Source: an uncultured archaeon (GTDB lineage Archaea; Asgardarchaeota; Lokiarchaeia; Sigyniarchaeales; SOKP01). Taken from it: a stretch of 27,880 nt of DNA. Position numbers and translations under genes: made by a program. Below the pieces are notes generated by a model. That model saw nothing but the letters and a program-made list of their open reading frames with translations. It was not told the DNA's origin and did no database searches. This document shows positions 16,650 through 27,067 of the stretch, piece after piece (positions within the stretch are counted from its first letter, which is position 1; the number at the start of each line of letters is the position of its first letter). The DNA lies in assembly GCA_964447495.1 (NCBI GenBank), contig CAYUTF010000038.1:1-27880 (forward strand), in the 5' to 3' direction.

Positions 16650-18062
16650 ATGGAAACTATACAATCGGTAGAGCGGCTTATAATTGCCACAAATAATATG
16701 TTTTATAATAAAAAGACTGAAGTACTCTCAATTCATTTAGAGGACTTTACCTTTATTGGAAATTATAAAAAATCGACTAAAATCAGTAAAATATTAGATG
16801 ATTTGTATAAATCTTTGGGGGAAACTCCACTTAGAAGAGAAGATCTCGCAATTGTTGATTTTGTAACACAAACATCACTTTTAGAAAATACCAAATTAAA
16901 AAAACTTAAGTTGATTTCAAACAGAGAGAAGGAAAAAGAGGAATTAAAGAAAGAAGTAAAAAAAGAAGAGGAGGTTCGAGAAGCAAAACAACTAGCACCT
17001 AAAGAAAAGGCGAAAGCTGGTAAAAGCAAAAAAGTAAGTAGAGCAAAAGAAGTTGCTGAGGAAAGTATAATCGAATACGAAGAAGAAGTAGAAGAATTAC
17101 TATCTAAAGATGAAGATATGGACCAAGCGGCATATAAAAAAATGAAGGATGATTATGATAAGGAACTTTATGAACCTGCTGAGAGATTTCGTTCTGCACC
17201 ACAAGCCCCTCCAAAAGCAGCGCCATCAACTGCACCAAGTCCTCCTCCTGGAGCAGGTGCTCCAGTAGACGATGCCCTTACAGGACCTGGATTGCCCCCA
17301 CTGAAAAAAGCTGAAGAATTGCCCGCCAAACGAGATACTTCTGCTTTAGAAGAGGAAAAACCAACCGTTTATGAGATCAACATGGGTCTTCAATATTATT
17401 CAGTAATGATGGAACAAACCAGTTATTTATTCTATGTATATTTCTCTCATAAAGAATTAAAAATAGTTGATGAAGAAGGTAAAACTATTTTTGAAACTTC
17501 CTTTGTTATCAAAACCACAAAAAAGGAGCCTCCTGTGGTCGATTTACGAGTGGAAGGAGAAGGGTTTGAAGTTCATCCATTAAATGGTAAAGTTGTGATA
17601 AAAAAAGACGCAATTAATCCTCCGGTTATGATCTTTTCGGTACTTCCTACGAGGAAGAAAAGAACAAAAAAAGATAAAAAAGAGGGGGAGCGCCGTTACT
17701 TAAATGTGTATATTGATTTTGAAGGAAAAACAATCAATCATTCAATTTTATCCATTATCGTGCAACCGAAACATTTTCATCTAGACATCGGTCCTATTCA
17801 TCTGGATATCAGTAAGAAAGCGGCAGTCACTGTCTCAATGATTTCCATTTTAGTAGCGATTGGATCCTTAATCTATACTTTCCTATCAATCGATCCTACA
17901 TCATCGTTCATTGACATCGTAAGTAATTTCTCCCCAGGCTTAGGAGCGTTTTTATTTTTTGGAGTCTTTTTACTAACACTATTCAAGGAGGGAATTTATC
18001 CCCTAAAGGAAAAGATAAGTTATTTCTTAAATTTCGATAAATCGGGTATAATTATAAAATAA
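16650..18062 (+). CDS. Hypothetical membrane-anchored protein with Lys/Glu-rich and Pro/Ala-rich linker and two C-terminal TM helices
   Basis: 470-aa ORF with the low-complexity segment SAPQAPPKAAPSTAPSPPPGAGAP, a beta-rich domain, and hydrophobic AAVTVSMISILVAIGSLIYTFL and GLGAFLFFGVFLLTLF. Confidence 0.75.
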   Translation: METIQSVERLIIATNNMFYNKKTEVLSIHLEDFTFIGNYKKSTKISKILDDLYKSLGETPLRREDLAIVDFVTQTSLLENTKLKKLKLISNREKEKEELKKEVKKEEEVREAKQLAPKEKAKAGKSKKVSRAKEVAEESIIEYEEEVEELLSKDEDMDQAAYKKMKDDYDKELYEPAERFRSAPQAPPKAAPSTAPSPPPGAGAPVDDALTGPGLPPLKKAEELPAKRDTSALEEEKPTVYEINMGLQYYSVMMEQTSYLFYVYFSHKELKIVDEEGKTIFETSFVIKTTKKEPPVVDLRVEGEGFEVHPLNGKVVIKKDAINPPVMIFSVLPTRKKRTKKDKKEGERRYLNVYIDFEGKTINHSILSIIVQPKHFHLDIGPIHLDISKKAAVTVSMISILVAIGSLIYTFLSIDPTSSFIDIVSNFSPGLGAFLFFGVFLLTLFKEGIYPLKEKISYFLNFDKSGIIIK

Positions 18063-18063
18063 C

Positions 18064-18978
18064 TCATTTTTTTATCTTTTCTGTTTTTTTTTTAATATAT
18101 TGCCAAAAACTCTTCTTAATTCCGCTCAGATCTAATTCTTTTAGTTTTATAAAATATAATTTCCGTTTGGCTATGACGGGATATTCTTTGATATTAAAAG
18201 TTTTTATTAAATTTGCCTTTTCTGATCTATTTACCATCATTTCACTCATTACACTTATGTAATTAGATTCATTAACTGTTGATATTATTGAATCATTATC
18301 ATTCATCTCAAGTTTAATATTGAGTTCATTATAATCCTTAAATTGCTGTTGAAAAATATCTCTCATTCCTGAGCCTTCTTCACGCCAAATAAATGGATAT
18401 GGAATGATATCTTTCAACGTAATTTTCTTTTCTCCTTTCTTCAATAATTCATGGGTAGGAGAACAAATAAATTTGAACTCATCTTCACCTATTTCAATAT
18501 AGTCAAACTTTTCTTTTTCATAATCCATAAAACTGCCGATACCTGCAAAGTCAGCTTTTTTTTTAGTCACATTTTCAATTGAAAGTTGAGAATTGTTGAT
18601 ACTTACATTAAAAAGGACATTTGGGTGAGCATTTTTAAAGTCGGTAATTAGTTTTGGTAATATATGAGAACCAGGAATTGTAGAAGCCGATATAACAATA
18701 GGTTCAGACTCTTGAGATTTAAATTTTCTAAGTTCCCTCTCACAAGAATTATAAATTTCAATGAGTTGCCTAGCATAAAGAAGAAATATTTTTCCTGCTT
18801 CTGTCAATGCGAATTTTTTAGTAGTACGATTAATTAGTTGAATACCTCCAAGAGCTTTTTCTATTTGAGAAATTTGATGTGATAAGGTACTTTGGGAGAT
18901 AGAGAGATCATTTGCTAATGCTGAAAAGTTCTTGTACTCTATTAACTTGATAAAATTCCTTATATATTCAATTTTCAT
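18064..18978 (-). CDS. LysR-family transcriptional regulator (CysL / selenium-metabolism-associated type)
   Basis: wHTH NFSALANDLSISQSTLSHQISQIEKALG...LINRTTKKFALTEAG; SASTIPGSHILP and REEGSGMR in the effector domain. Confidence 0.9.
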   Translation of the reverse strand: MKIEYIRNFIKLIEYKNFSALANDLSISQSTLSHQISQIEKALGGIQLINRTTKKFALTEAGKIFLLYARQLIEIYNSCERELRKFKSQESEPIVISASTIPGSHILPKLITDFKNAHPNVLFNVSINNSQLSIENVTKKKADFAGIGSFMDYEKEKFDYIEIGEDEFKFICSPTHELLKKGEKKITLKDIIPYPFIWREEGSGMRDIFQQQFKDYNELNIKLEMNDNDSIISTVNESNYISVMSEMMVNRSEKANLIKTFNIKEYPVIAKRKLYFIKLKELDLSGIKKSFWQYIKKKTEKIKK

Positions 18979-19194
18979 TTTTTATTCTTCAAATTTTGAG
19001 ATCATAACTAATTACAAAATTAATCATTACTACAGATTAAGTTTTCATGCTAATTATTTATTTCATTAATATTGTGATTATAACTTCATTTTACTCATTA
19101 TAAAAAATATTTATATAGGTTTAACATGAAATTATAATTTACTTTAGGTTAATTAATTGAGATCGCTTAGATTTGATGCTACTTAAAAATCAAT

Positions 19195-19210
19195 GAAAAA
19201 CTATTTAAAG
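19195..19210 (+). promoter_or_regulatory. Candidate archaeal BRE/TATA promoter for the his leader transcript
   Basis: GAAAAACTATTTAAAG: purine-rich BRE-like run followed by TTTAAA. Weak, because the region is very AT-rich. Confidence 0.3.
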
Positions 19211-19292
19211 CAACTATACTAATTTACATTAAATAATATAAGGGATAAAAACCCTTTAGTTAAGAATATCTTAAAAAACTAGTGAAAAAATT

Positions 19293-19457
19293 TTGATTAA
19301 TAGAAAAATTTCAAAATTAAATGGAATTTACTATTATTTTAGATATTCTTTACATTATAGTTGTAATAACTATAATTGTTTTCGGACTTATGATGCTGGT
19401 GTAAACTTTTTAAAAGAAGATAATCACCATTTGCATCATTGCCTAAGAAATGAGTAG
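19293..19457 (+). CDS. Putative His-rich leader peptide (uORF, 54 aa) upstream of the his operon
   Basis: TTG at 19293 with GTGA 7 nt upstream. Reads (M)INRKISKLNGIYYYFRYSLHYSCNNYNCFRTYDAGVNFLKEDNHHLHHCLRNE*, with His codons CAC CAT TTG CAT CAT at 19425-19439. Confidence 0.4.
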   Translation: MINRKISKLNGIYYYFRYSLHYSCNNYNCFRTYDAGVNFLKEDNHHLHHCLRNE

Positions 19458-19497
19458 TTTCAGTTAACTATTTCTTGTTTAATGACAATAGGATGAT
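19390..19497 (+). promoter_or_regulatory. Attenuator-like leader RNA with mutually exclusive hairpins and a U-tract
   Basis: ATGATGCTGGTG (19390-19401) pairs with CACCA-ttt-GCATCAT (19425-19439). ATCAT-tg-CCTA (19435-19445) alternatively pairs with TAGGATGAT (19489-19497). AAGAAA-tgag-TAGTT (19445-19459) pairs with AACTATTTCTT (19466-19476). U-tract TTTCTTGTTT at 19471-19480. Confidence 0.4.
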
Positions 19498-19543
19498 TGG
19501 AACTCGACTTTATAAATATTAATTCAATTTTGAGGTTATATAT

Positions 19544-20707
19544 ATGATATTATTGGAGGTGGATATAAATTATGTTGAGAAGGTGTGCAAGATTTCAGAT
19601 TTTTTTGAGAAAGTTGTATTAGAGAGAAATTGGGATACTTTTATCACTATAATATTAGATGGAAATAAAGAGAGCATCGTTAATATAATTCAAAACCAAT
19701 TTCTTAAAAAGATTTGCAGAAAAGTTAATATATGGGTGAGTTTAATTCCAGAAACTTATCCTTTTGCGAAAGAATTATTACAAAGCGGTGTAAAAATGAT
19801 AATTTTCAATTCAGGTTTTCAGTTTAACCAATTAGATGAAATCCCTAAAGCCCGTAAAATATGTTTAATTGAAGATTTAAATGATATACTTCGAAATAAT
19901 TATTCAGATATTATAGGAACTTATTCAAAAGTCATTCTTAATATAAATGATACTACTTTTTTGGAAAAAGGAATTCAATCCATGATTTTTAAATTACGTT
20001 CAAATATATCCATGCCTATTATTCTAGCTTTTCGTGATATCTATCCATATTTTTCGAGTATTGCTTCAAATGGAGCAGATATTTTAATTTACTTTGATTT
20101 TAAGCTGAAACTGTCACTAATAGATACATTATTGGTAAATATATTGGATTTTAAAAAAGTTAATGGGTTAATACCAACAATTGTTCAAGATCAATATAAT
20201 AATATCCTCATGCTGGCATATTCATCAAGGGAATCTCTTACAAGAACACTTGAAACCAGAGAAGCAACGTACTATAGTAGGTCACGAAAAACGATTTGGA
20301 TAAAAGGTGAACAATCAGGCAACTATCAGGATGTTGTAAGAGTTTATTATGATTGTGATGCTGATTCGTTAATATTTAAAGTAAAGCAAACCAATTTTGC
20401 GTGTCATACTGGGGCTTATTCATGTTTTAATGATTCAAGTTTTTCGTTTGGGTTCCTTTATGATATAATCATCGATCGTATTCGGAATTCTTCGAAATCC
20501 GAATCATATACAAAGAAATTAGTAGAAAATCCCGAATTATTACTTTCCAAAATTGAAGAAGAAAGTCTTGAAGTAATTAATTACAAGGATTATGAGAATT
20601 TGATTTGGGAAATTGCAGATTTAATGTATTTTTTGCTTGTGCTAATGGCATCGAAAGAGATCTTTCCTAACGATATTCTTAATGAATTATGGAGGCGTAA
20701 CAAGTGA
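19544..20707 (+). CDS. hisIE: Bifunctional phosphoribosyl-AMP cyclohydrolase / phosphoribosyl-ATP pyrophosphatase with ~200-aa degenerate HisA/HisF-like N-terminal domain
   Basis: HisI: GLIPTIVQD, ILMLAY, YYSRSRKTIWIKGEQSGN, DCDADSL, ACHTGAYSCF. HisE: SYTKKL, KIEEESLEV, WEIADLMYFLLV. Confidence 0.92.
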   Translation: MILLEVDINYVEKVCKISDFFEKVVLERNWDTFITIILDGNKESIVNIIQNQFLKKICRKVNIWVSLIPETYPFAKELLQSGVKMIIFNSGFQFNQLDEIPKARKICLIEDLNDILRNNYSDIIGTYSKVILNINDTTFLEKGIQSMIFKLRSNISMPIILAFRDIYPYFSSIASNGADILIYFDFKLKLSLIDTLLVNILDFKKVNGLIPTIVQDQYNNILMLAYSSRESLTRTLETREATYYSRSRKTIWIKGEQSGNYQDVVRVYYDCDADSLIFKVKQTNFACHTGAYSCFNDSSFSFGFLYDIIIDRIRNSSKSESYTKKLVENPELLLSKIEEESLEVINYKDYENLIWEIADLMYFLLVLMASKEIFPNDILNELWRRNK

Positions 20708-21714
20708 ACGAAGAATTACATGGTTCTGTTTCAACTTATAGATCAAGACCAATCAGACTAGCTATCCCTTCAAAGGGAAGGATGGAATTAGAAACTCAAG
20801 ATTTTTTAAAGGCTTGTGGATTTAATTTACGAAGAAATAATAGACAATATATTGGATATATTCAAGGTCCCTGTAATATTCAGTTAGTATATCAACGTCA
20901 ATTAGATATTATTCGTGGGATTTTAAATGGTACATTGGAGTTAGGAATCGTAGGTTATGATTTAGTTTTAGAACATTCTCCTGCAGAGGAAAATGATTTG
21001 ATTGTTATTTTAGATGCATTAAATTATGGTATTTGTAACCTTGAAATAGCTATACCTGAAGAGTGGAAAGAAAACTCATTACAAGATATTAAGGAAAGAA
21101 AAAAAGAAAAGATCAGAGTTGCAACAAAATTCCCAAAACTTACTAAAGAATTCTTGGATAAAGTAGATATTCCATACAAAATTGTTGAAGGAAATGGTTC
21201 TATCGAAGTCTATCCTGAACTTGGTCATAGCGATATTATAGTTGATCTTGTATCCACTGGTCAGACATTGAAGGATAATCGGTTGAAAAAAATTAAAAAT
21301 GGATGCATAATGAAGTCAGAGGCCGTTTTAATAGGTAATCGCACGGCTTTAAGAAACGCAACGGTTCTCAAGATCACAAGAGAATTAATTGAGTATTTTG
21401 AGGCTAGTTTAAGAGCTGAAAAATTTGTTTCTGTTTTTGCAAACATGCGAGGAGAGAATAAAAAGCAAATAATGAATGCAATTTACGCAAAAAAAGGTCT
21501 TGAAGGCCTTCAAGGACCAACCATATCACCAATTTTAACAAAAAGTGGAGAGAAAATGTATGCAATCCATGTTATTGTTGAAAAAAGTAAATTATATCAA
21601 GCACTAAATAATTTACGTGCCATAGGAGGAAGTGGTGTGGTAGTAGCACCTACACTTTACATTTTTGAAGAGGAACCATTGAAATTTAAAGAATTACTAA
21701 AAAAATTGGGGTAA
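20704..21714 (+). CDS. hisG: ATP phosphoribosyltransferase, long form
   Basis: RLAIPSKGRM, LGIVGYD, RVATKFP, GSIEVYP, DIIVDLVSTGQTLKDNRL, C-terminal regulatory domain GLQGPTISP. GTG start overlaps the hisIE stop (GTGA). Confidence 0.95.
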   Translation: MNEELHGSVSTYRSRPIRLAIPSKGRMELETQDFLKACGFNLRRNNRQYIGYIQGPCNIQLVYQRQLDIIRGILNGTLELGIVGYDLVLEHSPAEENDLIVILDALNYGICNLEIAIPEEWKENSLQDIKERKKEKIRVATKFPKLTKEFLDKVDIPYKIVEGNGSIEVYPELGHSDIIVDLVSTGQTLKDNRLKKIKNGCIMKSEAVLIGNRTALRNATVLKITRELIEYFEASLRAEKFVSVFANMRGENKKQIMNAIYAKKGLEGLQGPTISPILTKSGEKMYAIHVIVEKSKLYQALNNLRAIGGSGVVVAPTLYIFEEEPLKFKELLKKLG

Positions 21715-21717
21715 AAA

Positions 21718-23088
21718 ATGCTCAAAATATATTCTTTAGAAGAGGCTAGAAAATCGATTTTAAAGCGGGATTCGTTATTATCTGAAGATATACCATTACC
21801 AATCAAAAATGCGATAACGATGGTTTTTGGGAAAAATCTCACGCCTTTAGAAGTCGTCAAGTTAATTATTGAAGATGTCAAAAAGAGAAAAGATCAAGCA
21901 CTAACAGATTGGACAAGCAAGTTAGATAACGCAGTGTTAACCCAATTTGAGTTTTTCGAAGAAAATTTAGATATTTATCTTACACTAATTGACCCAAAAT
22001 TACGAAGGGCTATGGAAATAGCTCGTGATAGAATTTTAGCTTTTCATCAAGCGCAACCTATTATCAATTGGATGCGATATGATCTTGGTGGAAATTTAGG
22101 ACAAAAAATTACTCCAATTGAAAAAGTTGGAATTTACATACCTGGAGGTAAAACTCCGTTATTTTCTTCAATATTGATGTCTGCGATTCCTGCAATCGTC
22201 GCGGGAACAAAAGAGATAACATTTACAACGCCTCCTGACGCTAAAGGGGAATTATGCCCCGAAATTTTAGCGGCTTGCAGTTTAATAAAAAATTTTAACG
22301 TAACTATAAGATTATTTAAGTTAGGGGGAGTTCAAGCGATTGCAGCATTAGCTTATGGGACGGATCAAGTCCCAAAGGTGGATAAAATTGTGGGTCCAGG
22401 TAATATTTTTGTGAATTTGGCAAAAAAAGAGGTCTATGGAAAGGTTGGCATAGATGGAATATATGGTCCTACAGAAGCTTTAATTATTGCAGATGAATCT
22501 GCAAATCCTAGTTTTATTGCTTCAGATCTTTTAGCTCAAGCTGAACATGATTATTTTGCAATTCCTATTTTATTAACCCATGACAAATCTTTAATTTTAC
22601 GTGTTCAAGAGGAACTTAATAGACAATTTGAGCTGCTTGAAAGAAAGACAATAATAAAGTCCGCTTTAGAATATAAGGGAGGAATAATTTTTACAAACTC
22701 TTTAAGTCAGTCAATCGAAGTTTCAAATGAATTTGCCCCTGAACATTTATCTTTGATGATTAGAAATCCTTGGGAAATATTAAACAAAATCAGAAATGCA
22801 GGAGGTATTTTTGTTGGCGAGAATTCATATGAAGTATTAGGTGATTATATTGCGGGACCCAGTCATATTATGCCTACGAGTGGGTCAGCTCGATTTTCAT
22901 CGCCTTTATCAGTTAATGATTTTATAAAAATAACCAATATTGTCTCCTTAAATGATTCTGATGCTCAATTTTTATCTGAGTTTGCGGAAATATTTGGAAA
23001 AAGTGAAGGCCTGACAGCACATTCTAATGCAGTTAATCAAAGGCGGATATATTATAATTTAAAATTAAAACTACAAGAGGAGGATTAA
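21718..23088 (+). CDS. hisD: Histidinol dehydrogenase
   Basis: VGIYIPGG, GGVQAIAALAYGT, KIVGPGNIFV, GPTE, DLLAQAEHD, APEHL, GDYIAGPSHIMPT, EGLTAH. Confidence 0.96.
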   Translation: MLKIYSLEEARKSILKRDSLLSEDIPLPIKNAITMVFGKNLTPLEVVKLIIEDVKKRKDQALTDWTSKLDNAVLTQFEFFEENLDIYLTLIDPKLRRAMEIARDRILAFHQAQPIINWMRYDLGGNLGQKITPIEKVGIYIPGGKTPLFSSILMSAIPAIVAGTKEITFTTPPDAKGELCPEILAACSLIKNFNVTIRLFKLGGVQAIAALAYGTDQVPKVDKIVGPGNIFVNLAKKEVYGKVGIDGIYGPTEALIIADESANPSFIASDLLAQAEHDYFAIPILLTHDKSLILRVQEELNRQFELLERKTIIKSALEYKGGIIFTNSLSQSIEVSNEFAPEHLSLMIRNPWEILNKIRNAGGIFVGENSYEVLGDYIAGPSHIMPTSGSARFSSPLSVNDFIKITNIVSLNDSDAQFLSEFAEIFGKSEGLTAHSNAVNQRRIYYNLKLKLQEED

Positions 23089-23089
23089 T

Positions 23090-24229
23090 TTGAATAGATC
23101 AGAAAGTATATGTCCAACTCAAAATATAAAAAAGATAATTGAAAGTGGAGCATATATACAAAAGCTAGCAAATTATACAATAGATAATTTATCAGATGAG
23201 AGTATCAGATATTTAGATAAAAATGAAAATCCATTTGAGACACCAATAAGTGATTTCTCAACTTCAGAAATATTACAAGATTTAAGAAGATATCCTGACC
23301 CCTATTGCAACACTCTTCTGAATTCTATCTCTAAAGTTATAGATATTCCCAGCTGCTATTTATTATCCGGTAACGGTTCAGATGAATTGATTGATATGAT
23401 TATTAGAGCATATAGTGAAGAAAATGATACAATTTTGAGTGTATCTCCATCATTTACGATGTATAAAATATATGCTCAAATTAATAGAACATCATTTATT
23501 TCAGTTCCTTTAAAATTAAAGCTAATTCACTCCAAACGAATTGCGATATACGATTTAGATGAAGAAGAGTTTTTAAGAATTGCTAAGTTAGCGAAAATAA
23601 TTATTTTAGCTAGGCCAAACAATCCAGATGGGAATGTTTTGAGGTTAAGTTTTATAGAAGAACTCCTAAAGTTAAATAAGTTGACAATTATTGATGAAGC
23701 ATATATTGAATTTAGTAATGAACCTTCTCTGGTTAGTTTAGTAAAGAAAAATGAGAATCTAATTGTATTAAGAACTTTTAGTAAAGCATATGGATTAGCA
23801 GGATTACGATTGGGTTATGGAGTAATGAACCCTTCAATAAAAGATGTATTAATTCAAATTAAAAGCCCTTTCAATGTAAATAGATTAGCTTCCAAATTTG
23901 GAATTAAGATACTTAAATCTCAAAAAGCAGTTATTGAAAATATAGAAAAAATCAAAATTATTAGGGATGAATTTTTCAAGAATTTGATTCAGAATCAGGA
24001 TATTAACCAAAATTATCTAGTTCATCCAAGTGAGGGAATTTTTGTGTTAATTAGATTTATGAATACAGAAATAGCTAAATCCATTTATGAGTATCTATTA
24101 AAGAATAAAATAAAAGTTCGAAAGTATGAAGAAACCGAACTTTCTTCATGTCTACGAATTTCCATAGGGCTTCAATCTGATATGAATGAAGTTCTCTATA
24201 AACTAAATTCATTTTTTAAGGTGATATAA
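23090..24229 (+). CDS. hisC: Histidinol-phosphate aminotransferase
   Basis: LDKNENP, RYPDP, GNGSDELI, PNNPDG, DEAYIEF, PLP-lysine motif RTFSKAYGLAGLRLGY, LRISIG. TTG start after GAGGAGG. Confidence 0.93.
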   Translation: MNRSESICPTQNIKKIIESGAYIQKLANYTIDNLSDESIRYLDKNENPFETPISDFSTSEILQDLRRYPDPYCNTLLNSISKVIDIPSCYLLSGNGSDELIDMIIRAYSEENDTILSVSPSFTMYKIYAQINRTSFISVPLKLKLIHSKRIAIYDLDEEEFLRIAKLAKIIILARPNNPDGNVLRLSFIEELLKLNKLTIIDEAYIEFSNEPSLVSLVKKNENLIVLRTFSKAYGLAGLRLGYGVMNPSIKDVLIQIKSPFNVNRLASKFGIKILKSQKAVIENIEKIKIIRDEFFKNLIQNQDINQNYLVHPSEGIFVLIRFMNTEIAKSIYEYLLKNKIKVRKYEETELSSCLRISIGLQSDMNEVLYKLNSFFKVI

Positions 24230-24230
24230 T

Positions 24231-24848
24231 ATGGAAAGTGAGATGGAACGAAAAATAGAATTAGAACGGAAAACTAATGAAACAAACATTCATATTAAAT
24301 TAAATATTGATGGGAAAGGAAATACGAATATTGATACAAAACTTAAATTTTTTGATCATTTACTAACTCAAATTGCGATTCATGGTTCTTTTGACTTAGA
24401 AATAAAAGCAGTTGGCGATTTAGACGTAGATACTCATCATCTTATCGAAGATACCGCAATTATCTTAGGAAAAGCCTTTAGAAAAGCTCTAGGCAAAAAT
24501 GTTGGAATAAATCGAGTTGGGCACTGTTATTTTCCTATGGATGACGTACTAGCATTCGTTGCTATTGATATCTCATCAAGACCTTTCTTTGTTCAGGAAA
24601 TAAAATGGGTCAATCCTTTTTTAGGATCGTGCGAAGAAAATATAATCCCTGTTGATTTAATAGAACACTTCTTATATTCTTTCACAATTAATGCTCAAAT
24701 TACGGCCCATATAAAGCTTATTTCAGGCAAGAATAATCATCACATTGCTGAAGGAATTTTTAAAGCATTTGGAAGAGCTTTAGATCATGCTTCAAGATAT
24801 GATAACAAAAGGAGGGATATAATACCATCGAGTAAGGGAATATTATAA
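24231..24848 (+). CDS. hisB: Imidazoleglycerol-phosphate dehydratase (monofunctional)
   Basis: RKTNET, FFDHLL, GDLDVDTHHLIED, PMDD, NNHHIAEGIFKAFGRAL, PSSKG. No N-terminal phosphatase domain. Confidence 0.95.
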   Translation: MESEMERKIELERKTNETNIHIKLNIDGKGNTNIDTKLKFFDHLLTQIAIHGSFDLEIKAVGDLDVDTHHLIEDTAIILGKAFRKALGKNVGINRVGHCYFPMDDVLAFVAIDISSRPFFVQEIKWVNPFLGSCEENIIPVDLIEHFLYSFTINAQITAHIKLISGKNNHHIAEGIFKAFGRALDHASRYDNKRRDIIPSSKGIL

Positions 24849-24861
24849 AAGGTGAATTAGG

Positions 24862-25461
24862 ATGATAACAATCGTTGATTATGGTACTGGTAATCTCCGC
24901 TCAATTCAAAAGAGTCTAGAGCGATTTTATCCAAAAGTTGAAATTACAAAAGAGTTAGCATTAATTAAAAAAGCAAGTGGGATTATACTTCCAGGAGTAG
25001 GGGCATTTGGGGATGCTATTGAAGAAATTCAAGAAATGGGGTTATTTAATTTCTTAAAAGCGAGTATTGGTAAAATTCCTACTTTAGGAATATGTTTAGG
25101 TATGCAATTAATGTTTTCAACTTCAGAAGAGTCATTAAATACTGATGGCCTTGATATCATTTCTGGAAACGTATTAAAATTAAACAATATGAATTCTGTA
25201 CGAATTCCTCATACAGGATGGAATCGTTTGATCCCTGTTTCAAAACCAATTGTTACGGGGTATGCATATTTCAATCATTCATATTATTGTATACCAAATG
25301 ATATCAATGTAATTAATAGTTACGTTCTACACGGTAAATATATTCCATCCATCATCAAAAAAGGAAATATTTTAGGAACGCAGTTCCATCCCGAGAAAAG
25401 TAAAGAAGCAGGAAATACTATATTTAATTACTTTCTTTCTATAGTAAAGAGTAAAAATTAA
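24862..25461 (+). CDS. hisH: Imidazole glycerol phosphate synthase, glutaminase subunit
   Basis: DYGTGNLRS, LPGVGAF, GICLGMQ (catalytic Cys), PHTGWN, YFNHSY, QFHPEKS (His/Glu). Confidence 0.95.
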   Translation: MITIVDYGTGNLRSIQKSLERFYPKVEITKELALIKKASGIILPGVGAFGDAIEEIQEMGLFNFLKASIGKIPTLGICLGMQLMFSTSEESLNTDGLDIISGNVLKLNNMNSVRIPHTGWNRLIPVSKPIVTGYAYFNHSYYCIPNDINVINSYVLHGKYIPSIIKKGNILGTQFHPEKSKEAGNTIFNYFLSIVKSKN

Positions 25462-25462
25462 A

Positions 25463-26965
25463 ATGAAAAAGATTATACCAGCAATAGACCTTTATAATGG
25501 TCAAGTTGTAAGATTGTATCAAGGAAGTTTTCACAAAATTAAATCTTATTCCAACGACCCAATTAAAATTGTTGAAAACTTTCTAAAGCAAGGTATCAAT
25601 TACTTACATCTGGTAAACCTAAATGGAGCAAAATTAGGAGAATTTGAGAAGAGTCCTAATTATGATATCATTTTAGCACTTATTGAATCTTGCAAGAAAT
25701 GGGGTTGTAAAATTCAAGTGGGAGGGGGTATTAGAAAAGAAAAAACAATCAAGGAGCTCTTGGGGAAAGGTGCTGATAAAGTTATACTTGGCACGCTCCC
25801 TATTGAAAATCAGAATTTATTAAATTCTTTAATTCAAAAATATAAAAATGAGATTCTCGTAGCTTTAGATGTATTAAATAATAATATAATGATAAAAGGT
25901 TGGCAAAATAACACGAGTATTAACTTATTTTCAATATTGAAAAGATTAGAAAAGATTGGAATCTCACATTTTATAATTACGGATATTTCTCGTGATGGCA
26001 CGGCTTCGGGTCCAAATTTTAACTTATATAAAGAACTTTCCATTTTGAAAAAAGAACAAACAGAAATAATAGCATCTGGAGGAATTAGAACAAGTAAGGA
26101 TATTGATAAAATATTAACATATTCGAATGGGATAATTATTGGAAAAGCGTTATATTCAAATAAGATAGCTAGAATGGAATTATGTTCTTTAAATATAAAA
26201 TATAATCCAACTAATTTAACTAAGCGAATAATTCCCTGTCTTGATGTTAAAGACGGAAGGGTAGTTAAGGGGATCAACTTTAAAGATCTAAGAGATAGTG
26301 GAGATCCAGTAGAACTTGCTAAATTTTATGATGATGAGGGAGCAGATGAATTAATCTTTTTAGATATTTCAGCAACTTTAGAAGAGCGCCAGACTATGCT
26401 AAAAACATTAAGTTCTATAGCAGAAGCCATAAATATACCCTTTTCTGTTGGAGGAGGAATAAAAAGTCTTGATGAAATGGTTCAGATTATAAAATCAGGA
26501 GCAGAAAAGGTAAGTATAAATACTGCTGCTGTTAAGAATCCTTCGATTATAAATAATGGTGCCCAAAAATTAGGGTCACAGAGTATTATAGTCGCTATTG
26601 ATGCAAAAAGAACAGATACAAATTGGGAAGTCTATAGCAAATCAGGGACGGAGCCAACCGGTTTAGATGTATTAAATTGGACAAAGGAAGTTGTAAGGAG
26701 GGGGGCAGGAGAGATTCTTCTTACAAGTATGGATAAAGATGGGACGAAAACAGGATACGACTTAGATCTAATTAAAATACTGTCGAATGAAGTTAGTGTT
26801 CCTATTATCGCATCAGGAGGAGCTGGAAATTTTGACCATTTCCTTCAAGCGATTAATGTAGGCGCCGAAGCAGTTTTAGCGGCCTCCTTATTTCATGATC
26901 GTATCATGTCGATTAAAGACTTAAAAAATTATCTCAAAAAACAAGATATTGAAATACGAATCTAA
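25463..26965 (+). CDS. hisA-hisF: Fused HisA (ProFAR isomerase, aa 1-~245) and HisF (ImGP synthase cyclase, aa ~251-500)
   Basis: HisA half: IIPAIDL..GQVVRLYQG, IQVGGGIR, VALD, KGW, TDISRDGT, ASGGI, IGKALY. HisF half: LTKRIIPCLDVKDGRVVKGINF, GADELIFLDISA, VGGGI, KVSINTAA, VAIDAK, LTSMDKDGTKTGYD, IASGGAG, LAASLFH. No stop at the junction. Confidence 0.93.
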   Translation: MKKIIPAIDLYNGQVVRLYQGSFHKIKSYSNDPIKIVENFLKQGINYLHLVNLNGAKLGEFEKSPNYDIILALIESCKKWGCKIQVGGGIRKEKTIKELLGKGADKVILGTLPIENQNLLNSLIQKYKNEILVALDVLNNNIMIKGWQNNTSINLFSILKRLEKIGISHFIITDISRDGTASGPNFNLYKELSILKKEQTEIIASGGIRTSKDIDKILTYSNGIIIGKALYSNKIARMELCSLNIKYNPTNLTKRIIPCLDVKDGRVVKGINFKDLRDSGDPVELAKFYDDEGADELIFLDISATLEERQTMLKTLSSIAEAINIPFSVGGGIKSLDEMVQIIKSGAEKVSINTAAVKNPSIINNGAQKLGSQSIIVAIDAKRTDTNWEVYSKSGTEPTGLDVLNWTKEVVRRGAGEILLTSMDKDGTKTGYDLDLIKILSNEVSVPIIASGGAGNFDHFLQAINVGAEAVLAASLFHDRIMSIKDLKNYLKKQDIEIRI

Positions 26966-27067
26966 AGAAAAAATTTAGGAAATTTTTTTTTTTAAGAAAG
27001 AGAACTCTCCAACCAAAGGCAGCTTAACAACAAGTAAATTGCGCTAATAAATTTATTACATAAACCA

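Follow-up and report, generated by a model that had tools for sequence, protein, structure and literature searches.

A conserved histidine-codon leader upstream of the his operon of an Asgard archaeon, a candidate leader-peptide attenuator

The his operon of an Asgard archaeon is preceded by a short upstream open reading frame (uORF) that ends in a cluster of His codons, and this cluster lies among conserved, covarying RNA helices. We interpret the leader as probably a ribosome-mediated histidine sensor, that is, a leader-peptide attenuator, which as far as searched occurs in two genera of one Promethearchaeota (Asgard) family. The sensor part of this interpretation is well supported and the effector part is not. 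Leader-peptide attenuation is a textbook bacterial device that needs ribosomes close behind the polymerase. A search of the openly accessible literature returned no paper on leader-peptide attenuation in archaea. If the interpretation is correct, the His leader and the similarly laid-out Arg leader of relatives would show that Asgard archaea, the prokaryotes most closely related to eukaryotes, employ coupled translation for metabolic sensing, and would open a way to study how archaeal polymerases come to stop early. The leader would also be a compact, testable cis-element for genetics in archaeal model organisms. The core idea of the initial annotation, which had read the letters of this DNA as a candidate His-sensing leader peptide in an apparent archaeon, is upheld by the conserved His-codon ORF, the covarying stems and the Asgard host.

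The locus and its host

The window, by which we mean the whole stretch of 27,880 nt that was analysed, is AT-rich (GC 0.23–0.38). Pfam matches and ORF coordinates place a his operon on its forward strand at 19544–26965, comprising hisIE (with an N-terminal extension), hisG, hisD, hisC, hisB, hisH and a hisA-hisF fusion; hisIE is the first of these seven his genes and has its ATG at 19544. The host genome is 3.8 Mb in size and 98% complete. It contains two TBP genes, a family that among 14 control genomes matched only the four archaeal ones, and same-genus Promethearchaeota metagenome-assembled genomes carry a homologous locus. The host is therefore an Asgard archaeon, and the archaeal affiliation that had earlier been suspected is borne out. 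Targeted family searches of this genome, read against its completeness of 98%, gave no match to ArgJ, Chorismate_bind (TrpE) or LeuA_dimer; with its full his operon, the host may be able to synthesise histidine while lacking the usual routes to arginine, tryptophan and leucine.

At the operon end (26966–26996), an A-rich/T-rich inverted repeat occurs with T12 (26985–26996), which is a clear oligo-T terminator signal. Genome-wide, T runs of at least 6 are present in 33% of 80-nt stretches after genes compared with 8% inside coding sequence. T4 runs are common throughout the genome and occur in 56% of any 80 nt of coding sequence.

The leader ORF

The leader ORF occupies 19293–19457 on the forward strand and has 54 codons, with a TTG start and the ending KEDNHHLHHCLRNE (NHHLHHCLRNE). 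Its stop codon, TAG (19455–19457), lies 86 nt upstream of the hisIE ATG, and a Shine-Dalgarno-like GTGA (19282–19285, forward strand) stands 7 nt before the TTG. The His-codon cluster CAC CAT TTG CAT CAT (19425–19439, forward strand), which is also arm B of the helix A:B treated below, places four His among the last 12 codons. The start, GTGA spacing, HHLHH tail and distance to the first his gene that had been read in the initial annotation are all confirmed from the sequence. Small-ORF tails in non-coding DNA up to 200 nt upstream of long ORFs were scanned genome-wide, and only three places in the 3.8-Mb genome have at least four His in the last 12 codons, the window leader being one of them. 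This rarity, together with retention of the cluster in all leaders compared below, argues that the cluster is not due to chance. A de novo search of the host genome for other cognate-codon leaders was too noisy to read for common residues.

A promoter-like element at 19195–19210 (forward strand; GAAAAAC and TATTTAAAG) is the putative BRE/TATA of the leader transcript. It aligns with the AACTTTTTTAG block of relatives, which is strongly conserved and lies about 85 nt before the uORF start. A small 5'-proximal hairpin, GGG-ataaaaa-CCC (19242–19254, forward strand), folds at -4.7 kcal/mol and is not significant alone (z -0.53). At the same place, one relative (L025) has GGGC-atta-GCCC, and small hairpins of other kinds are seen in others. 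A further helix surrounds the start of the uORF.

Conservation and distribution of the leader

Related loci were fetched with HisIE as the query. The His-tailed uORF is present in four same-genus genomes, in 12 of 12 Promethearchaeota loci from a species-representative collection and in 18 of 80 metagenome loci; the other 62 metagenome loci have more distant HisIE forms or do not have hisIE as the first gene. Promethearchaeota genomes and metagenomes together yield 26 other distinct homologous leaders, or 27 with the window. All 27 have an open frame of 36–54 codons with 4–6 His in the last 12, and the frame stays open despite indels, while the other two frames contain 2–13 stops. The start codon is ATG in 22 leaders and TTG in five, which eases an earlier caveat about the non-ATG start of the window uORF. 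GTGA precedes the start in 26 of the 27, L025 being the one without it. Absence of the His cluster from orthologous leaders had been named beforehand as evidence that would count against a sensor, and a conserved His-codon cluster with covarying stems upstream of homologous his operons as the pattern to look for; the cluster is present in 27/27, and the stems covary.

The length of the frame, which exceeds that of classical leader peptides at 36–54 residues, and its conserved C-terminal His motif would also suit a functional small His-rich protein (e.g., a metal-binding one) that is co-transcribed with the operon. We find this reading hardly credible because beyond the His cluster the sequence either varies freely or tracks RNA helices, because some relatives have a 12-residue internal deletion in the uORF, and because the ORF always sits before the his operon. 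A frameshift in His-hungry cells that would carry the ribosome to the first gene was also considered and is ruled out by early stops in the other frames. In the window, both non-uORF frames stop about 7–9 codons past the His cluster, and in another leader (L002) the +1 frame stops in the loop of helix P2.

A covariance model (R1) was built from 25 distinct 3' halves and covers the His cluster, helices P2 and P3, the Shine-Dalgarno sequence and the ATG. It matches exactly once per genome in 15 of 135 family genomes, these 15 coming from two of 13 genera, and it matches 41 of 86 collected loci. In every locus inspected, the match lies directly before hisIE. Window positions 19413–19546 score 85.4 bits (E 1e-13), a value that follows by construction since the window is in the seed alignment; independent support for its membership comes from alignment with relatives recovered through HisIE. 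BLAST of the leader DNA against 42 genus genomes gave low-complexity noise only.

Searches beyond the family bear on the origin of the leader. R1 has no match in 90 bacterial and other hisIE loci. An Rfam cmscan of 18000–21000 with E values up to 10 returned no His_leader (RF00514) and only two chance matches to other families. The window leader is not a member of Rfam His_leader, and the proposal that it is a bacterial attenuator imported with the operon finds no support in either search.

Helices around the histidine codons

Arm A of helix A:B (AUGAUGCUGGUG, 19390–19401, forward strand) pairs with the His-codon cluster at 19425–19439. The segment 19386–19443 has a folding energy of -15.3 kcal/mol (z -3.84), a value as good as which was found in 0 of 200 shuffles, and is the strongest local fold of the leader. 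The fold of 19380–19546, which contains both A:B and P2, has a z-score of -2.62. A:B is in the minimum free energy (MFE) structure of 22 of the 27 leaders. The remaining five consist of four deletion variants without arm A and one leader that pairs A with the second His pair. Covariation is evident in pair 39–90, which is AU in eight leaders and GC in seven, and in compensatory changes in the helix extension. The number of A:B cells changed on both sides is 30, compared with 17.7 ± 3.3 in shuffles, and 0 of 500 shuffles reach 30. The first stem of the initial annotation, in which the His codons form the 3' arm, has thus proved to be in the MFE structure, conserved and covarying. A rival pairing of the His region with 19489–19497, also proposed there, fared less well: it occurs in one MFE structure of a shorter segment and is displaced when the upstream arm is included. 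Within the uORF, a further helix, P0 (AUUAUAGUU / AACUAUAAU, 19354–19376, forward strand), has a counterpart of the UCUAAUAAC / GUUAUUAGA type in the MFE folds of relatives; the window segment 19348–19380 folds at -6.5 kcal/mol (z -2.11).

Much of the apparent peptide conservation coincides with helix arms, and the sequence of P3 is almost invariant. Both features would fit a structured 5' UTR RNA, either protein-binding or riboswitch-like, in which the frame and the His codons are by-products of A:B (CAUCAU/AUGAUG). Several observations make this very unlikely. In every leader the frame survives indels, while stops abound in the other frames; in-frame His codons persist at the second His pair, although it has no part in A:B; the four deletion variants without arm A still have the His cluster; and both the ribosome-binding site and the start codon have been conserved. 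A matching codon logic is seen in relatives, in the Arg-codon leader of argJ that is described below.

Helix P2 and the stop codon

The 5' arm of helix P2 (C, 19456–19466, forward strand) begins inside the uORF stop codon and pairs with the 3' arm (D) at 19494–19504 on the same strand. In the window, the P2 segment 19452–19508 has a folding energy of -13.3 kcal/mol (z -2.16). Across the family, P2 has 13 pairs that are 95.6% paired, six of them changed on both sides, and it is the best-supported structural element. P2 and P3 taken jointly are 94.1% paired with seven pairs changed on both sides, and 0 of 500 shuffles reach the observed covariation.

The initial annotation had placed a second hairpin at 19445–19476 (forward strand), which holds the stop codon and is mutually exclusive with P2. 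This hairpin can form, and it is weak: the segment 19443–19482 folds at -6.4 kcal/mol with a z-score of -1.24, and 22 of 200 shuffles are as good. A mini-hairpin of 5–6 bp on the stop codon is also possible in relatives because the P2 arms are near-palindromes. The effector that had been built on the second hairpin, whose opening was to expose a U-tract and cause termination, is not sustained. The hairpin is no better than shuffles, and the U-tract TTTCTTGTTT, part of the variable loop of P2, lacks conservation.

Helix P3 and the divergent window copy

A third hairpin, P3 (ACUGAA...UUCAGU), is nearly invariant in 22 of 25 leaders. It is followed by U3–4 and then directly by the G-rich hisIE Shine-Dalgarno sequence (G5). 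The U-run after P3, 3–4 long, is short compared with T12 at the operon end. P3 was considered as a generic module and rejected as such: the motif is single in each genome and occurs only in the his leader. The search pattern matched in four of five genomes, and the fifth has a variant Shine-Dalgarno sequence that the pattern excludes.

The window and two relatives (L105 and L025) are without the P3 5' arm. The last 57 nt of the window leader (19490–19546) are unstructured (z +1.49), and they include the conserved block ATTCAATTTTGAGGT (19522–19536, forward strand), which aligns with AATTCAGTTTTGGGGG of relatives and is made up of what is left of the P3 3' arm, a U4 run and the Shine-Dalgarno sequence of hisIE. 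The distance from the last His codon to the stop is 18 nt in the window, compared with 3–9 nt in 22/22 leaders with P3. The window copy is a divergent variant in which P3 and the stop-proximal His codon are lost, and this P3-less form narrows the possible essential core of the element. An earlier remark that the attenuator might be decaying applies to the loss of the P3 5' arm in the window lineage and not to the uORF, His cluster, A:B and P2, which are kept.

A LysR-family gene (HTH_1 and LysR_substrate in Pfam) lies at 18064–18978 on the reverse strand, divergent from the his operon. The spacer between it and hisIE is 565 nt long and contains the leader element. The gene is missing from the corresponding place in L025 and other relatives, where there is an unrelated gene or a same-strand membrane protein. 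Additional or replacement control of the window operon by this LysR-family regulator is possible. The stronger proposal, that the leader has partly decayed into a relic in the window lineage and that the divergent LysR-type regulator has become the main control of the operon, could draw on the presence of that gene 565 nt upstream in the window and its absence in L025 and other relatives, and on the loss of the P3 5' arm and of the stop-adjacent His codon in the window and L105, whose sequences are 94% identical. We consider it distinctly unlikely. HisIE of the window and of L025 are only 59% identical, yet the uORF, His cluster, A:B and P2 are intact in the window, L105 and L025; in the window, A:B is the most significant local fold (z -3.84); and the two controls are not mutually exclusive.

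Proposed mechanism and searches for a switch

Under the leader-peptide interpretation, the leader transcript would start upstream of the uORF and a ribosome would translate its 54 codons. When charged tRNA-His is scarce, the ribosome would stall at the His cluster, which forms the 3' arm of A:B and lies just before P2. Footprint arithmetic suggests that a ribosome stalled there would leave the P2 5' arm free or nearly so, and P2 would form; a ribosome that reaches the stop codon would cover the 5' arm and free the 3' arm. The level of hisIE would then be set by which state holds while the polymerase transcribes the last 50–90 nt. The most likely output is transcription read-through into hisIE, with transcription ending early under ample histidine. 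The P2 3' arm, once freed, could in the window pair with UUCAAUU just before the UUU and Shine-Dalgarno sequence.

A switch dependent on ribosome position, in the sense of a mutually exclusive terminator and antiterminator or sequestor and anti-sequestor, was sought in equilibrium folds and not found. In the 22 leaders with P3, the equilibrium pairing probability of this hairpin stays near 0.95 in three states (ribosome absent, at the last His codon or released) and is 0.91 when a ribosome occupies the stop. Accessibility of the Shine-Dalgarno/AUG region in equilibrium folds of 25 leaders is likewise unchanged, with a mean of 0.35–0.38 unpaired in four states, and no conserved anti-Shine-Dalgarno pairing was found among the leaders. 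Two further pairings were tried and rejected. The first, which joins the P2 3' arm and linker to the P3 3' arm and U-run, is 84% paired, a level that shuffles match, and 14 of 25 leaders have its central pair broken; for these reasons it was not retained as a conserved antiterminator. The second, between the His codons and the 5' arm of P2, is 79% paired and does not surpass shuffles either. Neither pairing covaries more than shuffles do.

Window-type leaders, represented by three sequences, offer another candidate (D:F), in which GAUUGGA (19495–19501) pairs with UUCAAUU (19524–19530) just before UUU and the Shine-Dalgarno sequence. L025 has a compensatory version, AAUUGGG with CUCAAUU, which is in its MFE structure with a ribosome placed at the stop. 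D:F is not in the MFE structure of the window or of L105.

An arginine leader in relatives

Eight relatives have a conserved Arg-codon leader (...ARRRL*) before argJ. Such leaders were seen at L237:2650–3075 and in L238–L245 upstream of argJ, and the operon is argJ-argB-argD-argC-argG. This leader is found in the same host family as the his leader and is like it in placing the cognate codons 1–2 codons before the uORF stop. Its first hairpin begins at the stop codon and shares the letters UAAUUC...GAAUU with the his leader; GAAGUGA/UCACUUC forms a second hairpin, after which come U5–U8 runs and then the first gene. The two leaders differ in that this one has Arg codons and in that U5–U8 after its second hairpin is a far clearer terminator-like signal. 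The Arg leader is not in the window genome, which has no ArgJ at 98% completeness.

Transcription attenuation is the favoured output of the his leader because, by analogy, the Arg leader, of the same layout, has a hairpin followed by U7–8 runs and because the freed arm of window-type leaders can pair with UUCAAUU, with a compensatory change in L025. A rather unlikely alternative keeps the sensor and moves the output to a post-transcriptional step, where stalling would alter hisIE translation initiation or downstream mRNA stability and not termination. The position of P3 hard against the Shine-Dalgarno sequence is consistent with this, as is a U-run too short to resemble the clear terminators of the genome; P3 forms at any ribosome position, which speaks against a terminator switch, and the window copy keeps the sensor without P3. 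Against a post-transcriptional output stand the constant accessibility of the Shine-Dalgarno/AUG region (0.35–0.38 unpaired in all four states across 25 leaders), the lack of a conserved anti-Shine-Dalgarno pairing and the long U-runs of the Arg leader. A broader proposal, held tentatively, is that Asgard archaea might gauge amino-acid supply by translated leader peptides with an effector unlike the bacterial terminator/antiterminator. In that scheme, the lead ribosome would either establish or melt a helix that begins in the stop codon, with an effect on the archaeal RNA polymerase, on its termination factor or on initiation of the next gene. If so, the leader would give direct genetic evidence that coupling of transcription and translation serves regulation in this lineage.

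Comparison with known attenuators

The his leader of E. coli and Salmonella has consecutive hairpins, A:B, C:D and E:F, the final one followed by a U-run. The Asgard leader is similar to enterobacterial hisL in having a short His-codon-rich ORF directly upstream of the his operon, in placing the His codons within a chain of consecutive hairpins (A:B, C:D, E:F), and in ending with a hairpin and a U-run just before the first gene. It differs from hisL in many respects. There is no sequence or structure homology by Rfam; the ORF has 36–54 codons; the His codons occupy the 3' arm of their helix, with the next helix adjoining the stop codon; no support was obtained for alternative B:C or D:E pairings, and the U-run is 3–4 long; and the host has an archaeal RNA polymerase with TBP.

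The logic of trp-type attenuators (trpL 1:2, 2:3, 3:4) is available to the window leader. On stalling, segment 2 (C) would pair with segment 3 (D); with a ribosome at the stop, segment 2 would be covered and segment 3 could pair with segment 4 (UUCAAUU, then the U-run). Unlike that of trpL, the 3:4 pairing of the window is weak (7 bp including two G-U pairs, with a 22-nt loop), is not in the window MFE structure, and draws its support from a single compensatory change in a single relative. The leader is also similar to translational attenuators with leader peptides, such as those of the ermC/cat type and the mycobacterial Cys leaders (bioRxiv 10.1101/834739), in which a stalled uORF ribosome remodels downstream RNA and alters expression of the next gene. 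It differs from these in that no ribosome-position-dependent sequestration of the ribosome-binding site was computed.

Set against the attenuator class, the leader has a cluster of codons for the pathway end product in a short ORF upstream of the biosynthetic operon, conservation of cluster and open frame in orthologous leaders (27/27), and regulatory codons in conserved covarying helices (A:B, P2). Mutually exclusive structures chosen by ribosome position, the two-structure switch that defines the class, did not emerge from the equilibrium folds. In its logic, the leader would resemble the class.

Additional observations

Where relatives have a longer form of HisIE, the spacer is short and the uORF is absent. 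In the same genus as the window, five loci with this longer form (L007–L011) have a conserved block of the AATTCCACGAGAATAAA type in a 110–190-nt spacer upstream of hisIE, and this block may be a different control element. HisIE of the window (19544–20707, forward strand) has an N-terminal extension of about 220 residues with a conserved RNWD motif, for which Pfam gave no match; an insertion of about 90 residues (positions 90–180) distinguishes this HisIE from homologues in the same genus. The last gene of the operon (25463–26965, forward strand) encodes 500 residues with two His_biosynth stretches, in keeping with a hisA-hisF fusion. The uORF is overlapped in another frame by an ORF of 27 codons that starts with ATG (19321–19404, forward strand) and whose predicted product, MEFTIILDILYIIVVITIIVFGLMMLV, is very hydrophobic.
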